Of a stretch of 64,000 bases of DNA, positions 11,565 to 15,158 are shown piece after piece (the stretch's first letter is position 1; each line of letters opens with the position of its first letter). This DNA is from Chloroflexota bacterium (lineage in GTDB: Bacteria; Chloroflexota; Limnocylindria; P2-11E): positions 438 through 64,437 of the forward strand of contig VBJD01000026.1 in assembly GCA_005887995.1 (NCBI GenBank), read 5' to 3'. The position numbers and the translations under genes are program-made. Under the pieces are notes generated by a model that did not search any database, was not told the DNA's origin, and saw nothing but the letters and a program-made list of their open reading frames with translations.

Positions 11565-12227
11565 CTAGCGCGCTCCCACAACGCCGATACGCGGACAGAG
11601 ATCGTTCACCGGACACCGCGAGCAGAGCGGACGGCGCGCGAGACAGACCTCGCGTCCATGGCGGATGAGCAGCATGTGCAGGTCATAGACCTCCGCGGGC
11701 GGCGCTCCTTCCTGGATGAGCTCCTGCGCGCGGACGGCGTCAGCGTCCTCGGGCACAAGGCCGAGACGCCGCGACACGCGATGCACATGCGTGTCGACCG
11801 GAAAGTATGGACGGCCGAGCGAGAAGAGCAGCACGCAGGCCGCGGTCTTCGGACCGACGCCTTTCAGGCCGACAAGCAGATCCCACAGAGCGGCAGAACG
11901 CATTCGCGCGAACGCGCGCTCGTCCAGCGGGATGCCGCGATCGCGTAGCGTCCGCAGGATCTCGCGCAGCCGCACCGACTTCGTCGGGCCGAGCCCACCG
12001 TGCCGGATCGCGCGCGCGATCGCGGGCAGCGGCGCATCGGCGACCTCATCCCACGTCGGGAGCTTCGCACGTAGGTCGGCGTAGGCGCGGTCGCGATTGA
12101 CGTCGTTCGTGTTCTGCGACAGCACCGTGAGGATGAGCTCGTCGAGTGGCGCTAAACGCCTGGGGGCTGCTGGATCTCCGTAGGCGCGACGAAGCCGCCG
12201 CAGGATCGCAAGGAGACGTCGGCGCAC
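11565..12227 (-). CDS. Endonuclease III-like HhH-GPD DNA glycosylase with 4Fe-4S loop
   Basis: Track ORF 11565..12608 has an Arg-rich, implausible N-terminus. Trimmed to in-frame GTG 12227. LILTVLSQNTND, HhH LKGVGPKTAACVLLF, VDTHVHRV, C-x6-C-x2-C-x5-C (CLARRPLCSRCPVNDLC). Start uncertain. Confidence 0.75.
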   Translation of the reverse strand: MRRRLLAILRRLRRAYGDPAAPRRLAPLDELILTVLSQNTNDVNRDRAYADLRAKLPTWDEVADAPLPAIARAIRHGGLGPTKSVRLREILRTLRDRGIPLDERAFARMRSAALWDLLVGLKGVGPKTAACVLLFSLGRPYFPVDTHVHRVSRRLGLVPEDADAVRAQELIQEGAPPAEVYDLHMLLIRHGREVCLARRPLCSRCPVNDLCPRIGVVGAR

Positions 12228-12287
12228 CCTCCGAGTATCGACGCACCTGTAGGCTCTGCCGAATCTTCGGAATGTGGGGAGGGATCT

Positions 12288-12965
12288 ATGCGATTCAAAC
12301 GAGACCTGCTCATCGCGATCCTGGCGTTCACGCTCGGCAGCACGACGGTCATCGCCGCGGGCGGACTCATCGGTCCCGATGGCGTGATCCACGCGTGTGC
12401 CAACGGTGCCGGCGTCGTTCGCGTGCTCCAGCCCGGTGAATCGTGCCGGGGAAGCGAGACGGCGCTCTCGTGGAGCGCGTCGGGGTCGCAAGGCGGAACA
12501 GGGCCGACCGGTGCTACTGGTCCGACGGGTGCCACCGGTGCGAGCGGACCGACGGGGCCTTCTGGATCGTTCCCGCTCACCAGCCCGAATGGCCAGTACT
12601 CGATCCAACTGACGGACGCGGGGATCGTGCTCGGCGGACCAACCAGCTCGATCATGCTCGCGGGTGGTGTCGTGACCATCCGCGCGACGTACATCGACAA
12701 CAGGTCGGATCTCGACTACCGAGTCAACGCTGGACGGACATTCAACGTGGACGCGGACAGCCAGGCCAACATCCGCGCGTCGGCGAGCGCAAGCCTGCAG
12801 GCGAGCGGGTCAGTTCTTGTCAGCGGCTCGCAAACGATCGTCGGCGCCGGGTCCTGCGGTCCCGCGCTGCGAACGTCAGACATCGCGCTGGTCGACGTGA
12901 ACCACGGGAACGCGGTGTATCCCGTCCAGTACACATCGAGCTCACCGGACGTCCTCGTGTGCTAG
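12288..12965 (+). CDS. Secreted protein with short collagen-like (G-X-Y)8 repeat
   Basis: Signal/TM MRFKRDLLIAILAFTLGSTTVIAAG. Cys-containing N-module. GGTGPTGATGPTGATGASGPTGPSG. Then a 130-aa beta-rich tail. Confidence 0.6.
   Translation: MRFKRDLLIAILAFTLGSTTVIAAGGLIGPDGVIHACANGAGVVRVLQPGESCRGSETALSWSASGSQGGTGPTGATGPTGATGASGPTGPSGSFPLTSPNGQYSIQLTDAGIVLGGPTSSIMLAGGVVTIRATYIDNRSDLDYRVNAGRTFNVDADSQANIRASASASLQASGSVLVSGSQTIVGAGSCGPALRTSDIALVDVNHGNAVYPVQYTSSSPDVLVC
12492..12566 (+). repeat. Gly-X-Thr/Ser triplet (collagen-like) coding repeat
   Basis: ggc gga aca ggg ccg acc ggt gct act ggt ccg acg ggt gcc acc ggt gcg agc gga ccg acg ggg cct tct gga, read directly. Confidence 0.8.
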
Positions 12966-13634: not shown

Positions 13635-13880
13635 ATGGACTGCGATGACTGCGTCGAGCGGCTCTACGCCTTCCTCGACACTGAGTTGACCAAGGCCGAG
13701 ATCATCGAAGTGCGCTCGCACCTCGAGGGCTGCGACGACTGCGACGACAACTTCCTCTTCGAAGCCCGCTTCCTCCAGCAACTACGCGACTGCTGCACCA
13801 CCGATGTCGCTCCAGCGGAGCTCCGTCAGCGGGTCATCCTCAAGCTACGAGCAGCGTCAGCACCGCCGACGACGACATGA
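13635..13880 (+). CDS. rshA: Zinc-binding anti-sigma factor (ZAS), RsrA/RshA family
   Basis: H-x3-C-x2-C motif (HLEGCDDC) plus N-terminal Cys. LYAFLDTEL...RDCCTTDVAPAELRQRV aligns with RsrA as I remember it. Confidence 0.8.
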   Translation: MDCDDCVERLYAFLDTELTKAEIIEVRSHLEGCDDCDDNFLFEARFLQQLRDCCTTDVAPAELRQRVILKLRAASAPPTTT

Positions 13881-13908
13881 CGGAGAGCGACGTAGTACCC
13901 ACCAAGTG

Positions 13909-13939
13909 TTGACATTCGTGACGTAGATGTGTCTATATA
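13909..13939 (+). promoter_or_regulatory. Sigma-70-like promoter TTGACA-N18/19-TATAT(A)
   Basis: TTGACA 13909-13914 and ctATATA(c) 13933-13939, in a conspicuously AT-rich patch of a GC-rich genome. Lies upstream of the micro-ORF. Confidence 0.4.
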
Positions 13940-13972
13940 CCGAGAACGCGTGGCCAGAAGGAGGTGATCCTG

Positions 13973-14014
13973 GTGCCAGCGAAGAAGAAGAAGAGCTCGA
14001 AGAAGAAGCACTAA
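13973..14014 (+). CDS. 13-codon poly-lysine micro-ORF MPAKKKKSSKKKH with a 13-nt Shine-Dalgarno
   Basis: AAGGAGGTGATCC (13958-13970) is perfectly complementary to the canonical 16S 3' tail. GTG 13973 lies 8 nt after GGAGG. 7 of 13 codons are AAG. TAA at 14012. Terminators follow. The ORF is below the track cut-off. Confidence 0.45.
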   Translation: MPAKKKKSSKKKH

Positions 14015-14019
14015 GGTCT

Positions 14020-14043
14020 GCGACGCCATCGCGTCGCTGTTTG
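14020..14043 (+). terminator. Hairpin GCGACGC-catc-GCGTCGC followed by TGTTTG
   Basis: Read directly, 5 nt after the micro-ORF stop. Short stem and poor U-tract. Confidence 0.3.
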
Positions 14044-14075
14044 AACCCAGACTCTCGACACCTTTCGCGAACCCA

Positions 14076-14111
14076 CCGATCCGCGTAGGCCTCGCGGATC
14101 GGTTTCTTTTT
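14076..14111 (+). terminator. Intrinsic terminator CCGATCCGCG-taggcct-CGCGGATCGG-TTTCTTTTT
   Basis: Perfect 10-bp GC-rich stem, 7-nt loop and 9-nt T-rich tail on the plus strand. Confidence 0.75.
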
Positions 14112-14230
14112 GAGCGGGACATGACACGCGCTCACCTACTCTTCGATCCATCGAACGACGATCGCTCCCACGGCTTCGTTGGCGTGCGGTCCTCGCGGGG
14201 TTCGCGGTCGCGGTCATCGTCGTCGTTCTC

Positions 14231-14536
14231 GTGGAAACCCTTCTCGCTCCCATCCCTGGCATCGTCGCCACCATCCTCGGTGTCGCCCTCGGCGGGTTCG
14301 TGTCCGGAAAATGGGCCAATTACGCCGGTATTTACCACGGCGCGGTCGTCGGGATGGCCTGGATCGCGTTCGAGGCGCTCGGCCCCGTTCCTGGTGCGAG
14401 CTATTCGAATGACGTCCTCAGCGACACGGTGATCGTCATCGCGATCGACGCGCTGACCCTCGTCGCGGCTTCGCTCGGAGGTTGGCTCGCGCGGCCGGAT
14501 CCTTCGTCTTCTTCGGGTACGGGCACAGCGCGTTGA
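14231..14536 (+). CDS. Small polytopic membrane protein (YrzE/TIGR04086-like); N-terminus unresolved
   Basis: The first canonical start is GTG 14231. The same frame is open from 14114 and encodes a plausible positive-inside segment plus TM1 (RSLPRLRWRAVLAGFAVAVIVVVLV) with no ATG/GTG/TTG. ATG 14121 is in another frame. Confidence 0.5.
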   Translation: METLLAPIPGIVATILGVALGGFVSGKWANYAGIYHGAVVGMAWIAFEALGPVPGASYSNDVLSDTVIVIAIDALTLVAASLGGWLARPDPSSSSGTGTAR

Positions 14537-15158
14537 TCGGGCACTCGTAGCACTTCGGCCTCGGCTGACAAATGCGCCGGCCGTGCAGCACGAGACACCA
14601 TGTCGCCTTCACCCAGTCCTTGCGCGGGAAGATCGCGCGCAGGTCCATCTCCGTCGCGTCCTCTTGCTTGGCCCTGCCTCCGACCTTGAGACGGAGCCGG
14701 TCCGCCACGCGGTAGACGTGGCGGTCGACGGCGACCGCGGGGACGCCGAAGGCGTTCCCAAGGACGATCGATGCCGTCTTGCGACCGACACCGTGGAGGC
14801 TGGTCAGCCCCTCCATGGTCGGAGGCACCTCTCCCGCGAAGCCGTCGAGGATCTGCTGGGACGCGGCGCGGATCGTCTTGGTCTTCTGCCGGAAGAAGCC
14901 GGTCGCGTGGATGTCCTGTTGGAGCTCGGTCTCGGGGACGCGGACGTAGTCCGCCGGTGACCGGTACTTCTTAAAGAGGTCGCGCGTCACGAGATTGATG
15001 CGTTCGTCCTGTGCCTGCGCCGCCAGGATCGTCGCGACGAGCAGCTCGAACGGGTTGCTGAACTCGAGCGTCGGCCCCCAGTCCGGGTACGCCCTGGCGA
15101 GGAGCCTCAGAATTGCGCGCGCGCGGGCGCGCACCTGCTGGAGGGTCTCTTTGGGCAC
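14436..15158 (-). CDS. nth: Endonuclease III
   Basis: FELLVATILAAQAQD, HhH SLHGVGRKTASIVLGNAFG, VAVDRHVYRV, Fe-S Cys cluster CQPRPKCYECPINALC, basic C-terminal tail. Confidence 0.9.
   Translation of the reverse strand: MPKETLQQVRARARAILRLLARAYPDWGPTLEFSNPFELLVATILAAQAQDERINLVTRDLFKKYRSPADYVRVPETELQQDIHATGFFRQKTKTIRAASQQILDGFAGEVPPTMEGLTSLHGVGRKTASIVLGNAFGVPAVAVDRHVYRVADRLRLKVGGRAKQEDATEMDLRAIFPRKDWVKATWCLVLHGRRICQPRPKCYECPINALCPYPKKTKDPAARANLRAKPRRGSARRSR

Follow-up and report, generated by a model that had tools for sequence, protein, structure and literature searches.

A conserved candidate micro-gene for a short lysine-rich peptide with an invariant RNA 3' end downstream of sigH-rshA in soil Limnocylindria

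Introduction

Among the systems that come closest to the element described here, the leader peptides pheL and hisL carry 7 Phe in 15 residues and 7 His in 16, respectively, H1-like bacterial nucleoid tails prefer Lys over Arg even in GC-rich genomes, and in STAB-SD elements the binding of the 30S subunit near the 5' end would protect the RNA. To our knowledge, post-transcriptional regulation has been little studied in the Chloroflexota. The ribosomal protein bS22 is a further point of reference, being approximately 30 amino acids long, with a high content of Arg and Lys and hardly any variation within a lineage, such that the bS22 of Borrelia differs at one residue across species (PMC10618245). 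Proteins of the bS22 type have been missed by annotation and bS22 can use a GUG start codon (PMC10618245). The element of the current study is an unannotated, self-contained unit at 13909-14111 on the forward strand of a 64-kb stretch of a Limnocylindria (Chloroflexota) contig, VBJD01000026.1, which is analysed here over its full 64,000 nucleotides and is termed the window. The unit lies between sigH-rshA, a pair of stress sigma-factor genes, and a small membrane-protein gene of the DUF3792-like kind, and it contains a putative open reading frame (ORF) for a peptide in which lysine is the sole basic residue apart from histidine. An earlier reading made from the letters of the window alone, referred to below as the sequence-only reading, had proposed a free-standing micro-gene at this site. 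Our comparisons suggest that the unit is a strongly conserved gene of an abundant, uncultured soil lineage that ordinary gene callers overlook.

Results

A unit conserved as a block downstream of sigH-rshA

The whole unit is kept as a block in approximately 100 independent related loci, all of which share the constant gene order SigH, RshA, unit, DUF3792-like gene and, on the opposite strand, nth. Judged from these alignments, block conservation on this scale is far more than chance would produce. The relatives were reached by two routes. A scan of genome contigs with a SigH alignment matched mostly actinobacterial SigH and yielded one useful relative, a Limnocylindria locus with 80% SigH identity (L009), and seven further SigH homologues were traced to their contigs (L089-L091 and L200-L203). 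These eight loci constitute an unbiased set, having been reached via SigH homology only and independently of the search pattern used elsewhere, and 8 of the 8 carry the unit. A metagenome scan with an exact 19-mer from the 3' part of the unit returned 107 stretches; five of them (L095, L115, L140, L143 and L156) are chance matches inside coding regions, and the remainder all show the order SigH-RshA-unit-DUF3792-like-nth. The RshA protein of the window was also found unchanged on many soil-metagenome contigs and in two metagenome-assembled genomes at NCBI, and the contigs with an identical RshA carry a virtually identical unit. Those SigH homologues for which a source is named, like the best genome match, belong to 'Candidatus Limnocylindria bacterium', which places the unit in an uncultured lineage of Chloroflexota and not in the Actinomycetota. 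Synteny downstream of sigH/rshA had been named from the outset as a place to look, and the unit is conserved there.

Beyond this group, no Lys-rich micro-ORF was found downstream of rshA in 79 other SigH loci, mostly from Actinomycetota, with some from other Chloroflexota, and nhmmer returned nothing above chance level, its strongest matches falling on the five stretches with chance 19-mer matches. There is no second copy of the unit in the 64-kb window. Literature searches for MPAKKK as a peptide and for small genes of Limnocylindria, the latter judged by titles and the beginnings of abstracts, found no earlier description. Taken at the level of sequence comparison, the unit is a real new small gene, with no family match.

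The unit has also escaped annotation. Just as the sequence-only reading described it as invisible to the ORF track, the source annotations of most relatives, and those of the near-identical contigs, leave the micro-ORF uncalled, and at L091 the annotation places an artefactual product of 190 amino acids across the unit. At L200 (2333-2422), the micro-ORF has been called as a product of 29 amino acids in the same frame, extended upstream (MSKSRTRRGQKEVIPVPAKKKKAKKAKKH); the call is due to a chance in-frame ATG within the -10 region, and the upstream extension is not conserved elsewhere. The gap after rshA does hold the unit, as proposed, whereas its size, given earlier as about 240 bp, is approximately 270-350 bp depending on where the next gene starts.

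A 13-codon reading frame with a comparative coding signature

The micro-ORF (13973-14014, forward strand) consists of a GTG at 13973 followed by 12 codons and a TAA at 14012-14014, includes 7 AAG codons, and would encode MPAKKKKSSKKKH, all of which can be read directly and is as first described. It is intact in all of the approximately 90 usable relatives. Excluded from these is L141 (Ga0137417_1496063), in which the ORF is disrupted; this contig carries the locus twice in inverted orientation, has indels at roughly four times the usual density, with 82 gap openings over 2.1 kb, and looks like an assembly artefact. L010 (JANXXG010000076.1) also looks like an assembly artefact, ending in a reverse-complement copy of the 3' end of its own sigH.

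Codons were tabulated for 83 elements, comprising 36 distinct coding sequences, among which the start codon is ATG in 74 and GTG in 9, and the stop codon TAA in 77 and TAG in 6. The start position is the same in all loci and the stop always falls just before a hairpin, at a distance of 5-13 nt. ORF length ranges from 42 to 60 nt and the predicted peptides from 13 to 19 amino acids, in 22 variants (20 in the 83-element tabulation and two further ones). The eight synteny-derived loci display the same pattern without any contribution from the 19-mer, with ATG replacing GTG as the start codon, CCG replacing CCA and CAT replacing CAC, and with peptides of 13, 14, 15, 16, 18 and 19 residues. Variation in the Pro and Ala codons is nearly confined to their third position, all four GCN codons being used, and Ser is specified by both AGC and TCN, with five Ser codons in use. 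Interruptions of the AAG run are always 3 or 6 nt long and specify A, S, G or T exclusively; even where there are four of them, the reading phase is preserved.

The choice of residues is equally restricted. Besides the Pro-Ala start region, the peptides draw solely upon K, A, S, G, T and H; Lys, Ala and Ser are abundant in them, and their net charge lies between +8 and +11. Their 326 Lys codons are 320 AAG and 6 AAA, and there is no Arg codon anywhere. A change from K to R needs only a single transition, yet no Arg is found in the peptides, and the local proteome is 10.7% Arg vs 2.3% Lys, Arg being approximately 4.6 times as frequent. A constraint on the RNA accounts for neither the restricted residues nor the exclusion of Arg, since AGG would be compatible with any purine-repeat motif. 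On this comparative evidence, the ORF is under purifying selection as coding sequence and is selected specifically for lysine, and it is very probable that the unit is a translated micro-gene. It follows from the coding signature that the ORF is not incidental, which contradicts one of the roles considered in the sequence-only reading, namely a small RNA carrying a fortuitous frame.

Three other frames were considered and set aside. The GTG at 13964, within the Shine-Dalgarno (SD) sequence, falls out of frame as a start in L091 through an extra base. For the reverse-strand ORFs at 13826-14122 and 13857-14135, a variable spacer breaks the frame, and the invariance at all three codon positions is the opposite of what coding sequence exhibits. 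As for readthrough of the stop codon, the post-stop frame is not conserved and the length changes of the spacer are not multiples of 3.

An extended Shine-Dalgarno sequence inside a 5' hairpin

The start codon is preceded by the extended SD sequence AGAAGGAGGTGATCC (13956-13970), whose 13-nt core AAGGAGGTGATCC (13958-13970) is unique as an exact copy in the 64-kb window; with up to 2 mismatches there are 3 matches vs 0.87 expected. Upstream of the 55 other long ORFs, the best complement to the anti-SD reaches at most 8 nt, even when the best of many candidate starts is taken, and the SD of the micro-gene is thus the longest in the window, by 5 nt. The claim of a 13-nt SD far exceeding its neighbours is therefore upheld, the canonical 16S tail being assumed. 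The sequence is conserved as CCAGAAGGAGGTGATCC and, in a second subgroup of relatives, as CCAAGAGGAGGTGATTCA; in this subgroup the SD reads GAGGAGGTGATTCA and retains its long pairing through a G-U pair. Both subgroups give 13-15 contiguous pairs with the canonical 16S tail, which is an assumption and may not be the tail of the host, and the predicted duplex with that tail has a stability of -27 to -32 kcal/mol vs about -12 for GGAGG alone. Because the second subgroup keeps the long pairing by means of a G-U pair, the alignments suggest that the extended complementarity is itself selected. The spacing between the SD and the conserved start codon is 8-10 nt.

Both the SD and the start codon are enclosed by a predicted 5' hairpin (13947-13981), which is present in the minimum-free-energy fold as well as in the RNAalifold consensus. 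The 3' strand of this hairpin comprises the G of the start codon and the two codons for Pro and Ala. Covariation is seen at the closing pair (CG 15, UA 5, UG 3), and the U-G/U-A pair tracks the synonymous CCG/CCA change. With a predicted stability of the hairpin of -9 to -15 kcal/mol, the duplex between SD and anti-SD can, by calculation, outcompete this conserved structure.

One polymorphism falls within the same segment. Among population contigs that are otherwise identical, a G/A difference at 13961 (L004 and L007) is the sole polymorphism in 400 nt and lies inside the SD core, turning GGAGG into GAAGG. This variant has weaker pairing with CCUCC and would pair more strongly with a CACCUUU segment of the transcript itself.

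Structured elements beyond the stop codon and an invariant 3' block

RNAalifold, applied to 30 representatives that are each less than 95% identical to the others, gave a consensus of three independent hairpins: the 5' hairpin, a post-stop hairpin and a terminator. Across the hairpin pairs, 98.5% of cells are paired vs 28-48% for slid controls, and the number of cells changed on both sides of a pair was reached in 0 of 500 shuffles. The post-stop hairpin, GCGACGC-CAUC-GCGUCGC (7 bp, 14020-14037), occurs in every relative at 5-13 nt after the stop, has a predicted stability of about -13 kcal/mol, and shows compensatory changes, from AU to GC in 3 sequences and from GC to CG in 1. It is followed by an A/U-rich spacer (14038-14056) that differs freely among relatives in both sequence and length, the length steps not being multiples of 3, with a mean majority frequency of 0.67 and no invariant column. 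Thereafter comes an invariant segment, G(A/G)CACCUUUCGCGAACCC (14057-14074), that is mostly predicted to be single-stranded. The unit ends in an intrinsic terminator detected by a terminator scan (14075-14111), in which the stem ACCGAUCCGCG/CGCGGAUCGGU and its 7-nt loop UAGGCCU span 14075-14103 and the T-run extends to 14111; the predicted stability is -20.5 kcal/mol. All 11 pairs of the stem are invariant in 30 of 30 representatives and the loop varies at its last base only, in three loci (L111, L155 and L201). A small hairpin and a textbook terminator had been anticipated and both are present, the stem having 11 rather than 10 pairs.

The extent of conservation at the 3' end exceeds that of any other part of the unit, the ORF included. 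Between C14059 and the T-run, 48 of the 55 columns of the alignment show no variation, including the 7-nt terminator loop but for its last base, which leaves the last approximately 53 nt (single-stranded CACCUUUCGCGAACCCACC and terminator, with its loop) essentially without change. This 3' block is identical in all 8 synteny-only loci. Over the 52-55 nt compared, identity to the window is 96-100%, or 95% in L091 as a result of a shifted register of the U-tract; the only other difference is A14058 of the window, which is G in the relatives. Fourfold-degenerate sites of sigH and rshA are only 0.38-0.69 identical in the same pairs. Nineteen of the columns were fixed by the search pattern and eight more by the filter, and the remaining positions are equally invariant. 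Such a pattern implies that the 3' 53 nt are under a second, sequence-specific constraint that would act at the RNA level, and, because every position is invariant without compensatory changes, unlike in a terminator or a coding region, the alignments indicate sequence-specific recognition.

These features bring into consideration a riboregulator, in which the 3' module (the seed CACCUUUCGCGAACCC together with the terminator) would be the functional part, either within the full-length RNA or as a 3' fragment of approximately 55 nt, while the peptide itself would be functionless and translation of the tiny ORF would only stabilise or gate the RNA through ribosome loading at the strong 5' SD, in the manner of STAB-SD. 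In keeping with this possibility, the 3' block, which is the best-conserved part of the unit, opens with 16-18 nt that folding predicts to be mostly unpaired (mean unpaired probability 0.3-0.7), an A/U-rich, freely varying spacer precedes them as at RNase E/Y processing sites, the (AAG)n run conforms to the A-R-N motifs recognised by the Hfq distal face and together with the U-tail resembles an Hfq module, and the peptide shows the length variation of a low-complexity sequence. Yet ribosome loading alone would let the codons drift, and only K, A, S, G, T and H occur; nor does the A-R-N motif account for the absence of Arg, as AGG would fit it and never occurs. The search for targets was equally unfavourable. 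In the 64-kb window, the best target of the 3' seed has -26.6 kcal/mol vs -25.7 to -30.7 kcal/mol for the best targets of shuffled seeds, no target lying above background, and complementarity to E. coli 16S, 23S and 5S rRNA, which served as a proxy and are not the rRNAs of the host, was not above shuffles. A search of Rfam over the whole window yielded nothing at the gathering score, and one confined to 13700-14400 yielded nothing at E <= 10. We regard a mainly riboregulatory unit as unlikely, though as the foremost of the alternatives. As an observation apart, neither tRNA nor tmRNA was found in the window. Mimicry of 16S helix 45 and the 16S tail by the terminator was also judged by eye and rejected, since the shared GUAGG, GCGG and GAUC strings lie in different structural contexts.

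A promoter-like region in an AT-rich patch

Upstream of the 5' hairpin lies a TTGACA box at the -35 position (13909-13914), read directly from the window and invariant in 85 of 85 related sequences, followed by an AT-rich -10-like box that is 89-100% conserved per position and can be taken as TATATA (13934-13939), with a spacer of 19 nt, or as CTATAT (13933-13938), with one of 18 nt. Among the relatives this box also reads CTAAAT, CTGAAT, CTAACT, GTGAAT or TTATTA. The start of transcription would presumably lie near A13945/13946. The sequence-only reading spoke of a strong promoter within an unusually AT-rich patch. The patch is evident, with a GC content of 0.544 in 13909-14112 vs 0.669 for the window, and the conservation of both boxes is in line with a promoter, whereas its strength is only partly borne out, as a simple sigma-70 consensus scan did not call it. 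The scan missed the promoter because the 18-19-nt spacing and the last base of the hexamer, which is not T, are off consensus. A palindromic operator, ACATT-N9-AATGT, in the promoter spacer was considered and discarded, as it is present in only 32 of 85 sequences and hence is not a conserved feature.

The downstream gene and the possibility of a lysine-codon leader

The gene that always comes next on the same strand encodes a membrane protein with weak matches to DUF3792/TIGR04086 only. In the window (14137-14536, forward strand), as in L200, L120, L151 and approximately 85 other loci, it seems to start before its first canonical start codon, GTG 14231, in that amino-acid conservation (I-E-R-R-S-L-P-R-L-R-W-R-A-V-L-A-G...) reaches back to the in-frame codon 14150-14152, which most loci have as ATC, L200 as ATG, and L120 and L151 as GTG. 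Ahead of this codon, at a distance of 6-7 nt, stands a conserved TAnnnT box (in the window TACTCT, 14137-14142). From its sequence, the gene looks like one with a leaderless mRNA, its own promoter and, in most members, an AUC start codon. As this gene has its own TAnnnT box, the unit would be free-standing and not simply the leader of the gene, and, with the ORF selected as coding sequence, the proposal of a complete free-standing expression unit is supported. The 3' end of the membrane-protein gene and that of the endonuclease III gene on the reverse strand (14436-15158) overlap convergently by approximately 100 nt (14436-14536), an arrangement that is kept in relatives.

It is nonetheless conceivable that the unit is a regulatory leader of the hisL/pheL type, in which the speed of the ribosome on 7-11 AAG codons would report the charging of tRNA-Lys and thereby control either readthrough into the DUF3792-like gene or the fate of the RNA. 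The Lys density of 7/13 to 11/19 and the length of the peptide match those of classical leader peptides, a strong terminator lies 3' of the ORF, a gene on the same strand is always next, and the use of Lys alone within an Arg-rich proteome would be expected of such a sensor. The structural predictions point elsewhere, as no conserved antiterminator pairing was found and both the RNAalifold consensus and ten individual folds give the same three independent hairpins, the stretch that connects the post-stop hairpin to the 3' block has no fixed length or sequence, and the terminator is very stable. Moreover, nothing links the DUF3792/TIGR04086-like gene to lysine, its conserved -10 box is its own and is positioned as for a leaderless transcript, and the non-Lys residues of the peptide are all small, which a pure codon sensor would not require. 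We consider a leader of this kind rather improbable.

Relation of the peptide to ribosomal micro-proteins

A third alternative, that the peptide is a homologue of bS22, bL37 or Thx, arises from its being very basic, tiny, unannotated and preceded by a strong ribosome-binding site, and from the precedent of bS22, which was likewise missed by annotation in Borrelia and for which a GUG start is possible (PMC10618245). BLASTP of a 19-amino-acid variant (MPAKKKAAKKSAKKTSKKK) against the bS22 of M. smegmatis gave no alignment at E <= 100. The M. smegmatis sequence used is identical to the PDB chains and, as a query, recovers bS22 and mS38 chains. A profile of 20 peptide variants against all PDB chains gave 0 matches at E <= 10; bL37 and Thx chains were included in this library and likewise gave no match, although with so short a peptide this is a weak test. 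The peptides also have 13-19 amino acids vs approximately 30-33 for bS22, contain no Arg and no conserved hydrophobic positions, and vary in length, at odds with the single-residue difference of bS22 across Borrelia. The sequence-only reading had noted a faint resemblance to bS22 in the frame beyond the TAA (KKKH-x-GLRRHRV). This did not survive comparison: the frame reads GLRRHRVAV in the window vs VPRRYRVAIFVF... in L009, many relatives end in ...KKK instead of ...KKKH, and the LRRxRV motif is not conserved. What is conserved after the stop is the RNA hairpin with its compensatory changes, and neither BLASTP nor the profile establishes a link. Homology to these proteins is accordingly very unlikely. 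A functional analogy to bS22, an AURKAIP1/COX24-domain protein that sits in the h2/h27/h44/h45 pocket of the 30S subunit, is possible by comparison of the two systems, membership in its family being not supported.

Neighbouring genes

Of the two genes upstream, sigH encodes a SigH-like extracytoplasmic function (ECF) sigma factor that scores 226 bits with TIGR02947, below the cut-off of 251.55, and rshA a ZAS anti-sigma factor that scores 67.5 bits with TIGR03988, above the cut-off of 62.5. In most relatives, the sigH-rshA-micro-gene cluster is flanked by two different HhH-GPD DNA glycosylase genes, which in the window are at 11565-12608 and 14436-15158, both on the reverse strand; one of them is nth, at its TIGR01083 cut-off. 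The glycosylases and the redox-sensing sigma/anti-sigma pair hint at an oxidative-damage neighbourhood. Directly upstream of sigH there is an ORF of 225 amino acids (12288-12965, forward strand) with a collagen-like GPTGATGPTGATGASGPTGPSG tract and a weak Pfam Collagen match (E = 8e-4). Among the relatives, the closest ones, L133 and L172, have this ORF (67% identity), whereas the other loci lack it.

Discussion

Based upon these features, we lean, with confidence slightly better than even, towards an independently transcribed micro-mRNA that would be translated into a Lys-rich peptide and would carry a 3' module in addition. The predicted message is approximately 165 nt long, has its own promoter-like region and a strong terminator, and belongs to a unit conserved across a clade of soil Limnocylindria (Chloroflexota), where it would specify a peptide of 13-19 residues rich in Lys, Ala and Ser. 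The combination of a 5'-terminal hairpin, a very strong SD, a tiny ORF and two 3' hairpins may represent the design of a stable message that is translated very efficiently and repeatedly; with such a design, the product would probably be an abundant free polycation that binds electrostatically to a polyanion. The polyanion could be ribosomal RNA, on the pattern of bS22 and eL41, or, on that of the Lys/Ala-rich H1-like tails of HupB/Hlp, nucleoid DNA. On balance, we would expect the peptide itself to be the effector. The 3' module, composed of the single-stranded segment and the terminator, could be the site at which a factor that governs the stability or translation of the message binds, or it could be a base-pairing seed, which cleavage in the A/U-rich spacer may then release. 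Presumably, a spacer that is A/U-rich and varies freely would suit a processing site from which a 3'-derived fragment is set free.

Several considerations weigh against a translated micro-mRNA with a functional peptide. Slippage in an AAG repeat would by itself yield some indels in multiples of three, and the conservation of the Pro-Ala codons is partly explicable by the 5' hairpin. The length variation and low complexity of the peptide are unlike known ribosomal micro-proteins, which are Arg-rich and highly conserved in sequence, and the exclusive use of Lys could equally fit a function at the level of the codon or the tRNA instead of the peptide. The -10 box is off consensus and was passed over by the promoter scan, and the expression, translation and product of the micro-gene are predictions at the level of sequence. 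Furthermore, about 90% of the loci were fetched by the 19-mer from the 3' block, so both the breadth of the family and the invariance of the 19 search positions are known without bias from 8 loci only.

A more elaborate arrangement, which we deem improbable, would unite several of these ideas in a two-in-one element. In this case, a hyper-translated micro-mRNA would give rise to a Lys-only peptide that binds the ribosome or the nucleoid, or that acts as a sacrificial amine nucleophile linked to SigH/RshA thiol stress, while the transit of ribosomes across the AAG run would gate how an invariant, 3'-derived riboregulator is released or becomes accessible, peptide and RNA being two outputs of one device that senses lysine or translation. 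If true, the element would be of an undescribed kind and its peptide would be among the shortest products of free-standing bacterial genes.

Irrespective of such details, the translated micro-mRNA that we favour has several implications. An ORF of 13 codons can evidently bear a clear comparative coding signature. Should it be produced in the amounts implied by its signals, the peptide would represent a small, polycationic component of the cell of a new type, and that it uses Lys alone within an Arg-rich proteome is an oddity both specific and testable. At the RNA level, the invariant tail of 53 nt points to an RNA-protein or RNA-RNA interaction in the Chloroflexota. The unit also provides a clean test case for the discovery of small ORFs and dual-function RNAs from metagenomes alone.

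Comparison with known systems

With the class of bS22, eL41 and bL37, which fills a pocket in rRNA (PMC10618245), the micro-gene shares its tiny size, its extremely basic product, a free-standing gene that is often unannotated and, in some cases, a start codon other than AUG. It differs in having no sequence relation to these proteins and in that its predicted peptide has half their length, uses Lys only, varies in length and is of low complexity. The attenuators hisL, pheL, thrL and leuL provide a second parallel, since they likewise combine an ORF of 13-19 codons, at least half of which specify one amino acid, with its own SD, a terminator and a gene on the same strand. What the unit has in common with attenuators is a short Lys-enriched ORF with its own ribosome-binding site and an intrinsic terminator before the next gene; it has neither a conserved, mutually exclusive antiterminator nor a readthrough-dependent regulated gene from the pathway of the amino acid that is sensed, the downstream gene being unrelated to lysine and equipped with its own promoter box. 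In addition, the 3' segment of the unit is invariant in sequence, and not only in pairing potential as in leader attenuators.

The dual-function RNAs SgrS/SgrT, RNAIII/hld, SR1/SR1P and Spot 42/SpfP resemble the unit as small transcripts with their own promoter and terminator, here one predicted from the conserved -35, -10-like and terminator signals, and as RNAs in which a translated small ORF is found together with a conserved segment beside the terminator that is unpaired, by prediction in the unit, translation being suggested for the unit by its comparative coding signature. They differ in that the ORF of the unit is much shorter and polycationic, that the unit belongs to no Rfam family, and that its base-pairing role is only a candidate. 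As regards STAB-SD, the cryIIIA message of B. thuringiensis likewise has a near-perfect extended SD near the 5' end of the transcript, whereas the SD of the unit is correctly spaced (8-10 nt) from a conserved start codon and evidently would serve initiation. In composition, the peptide is closest to the C-terminal PAKKA/KAAKK repeats of HupB/Hlp and to Hc1 and AlgP, which match it in K, A, S and P content and in the PAKKK, AAKK and SAKK motifs. These tails are domains of larger proteins, whereas the peptide of the micro-gene would be free and equal to one or two repeats.

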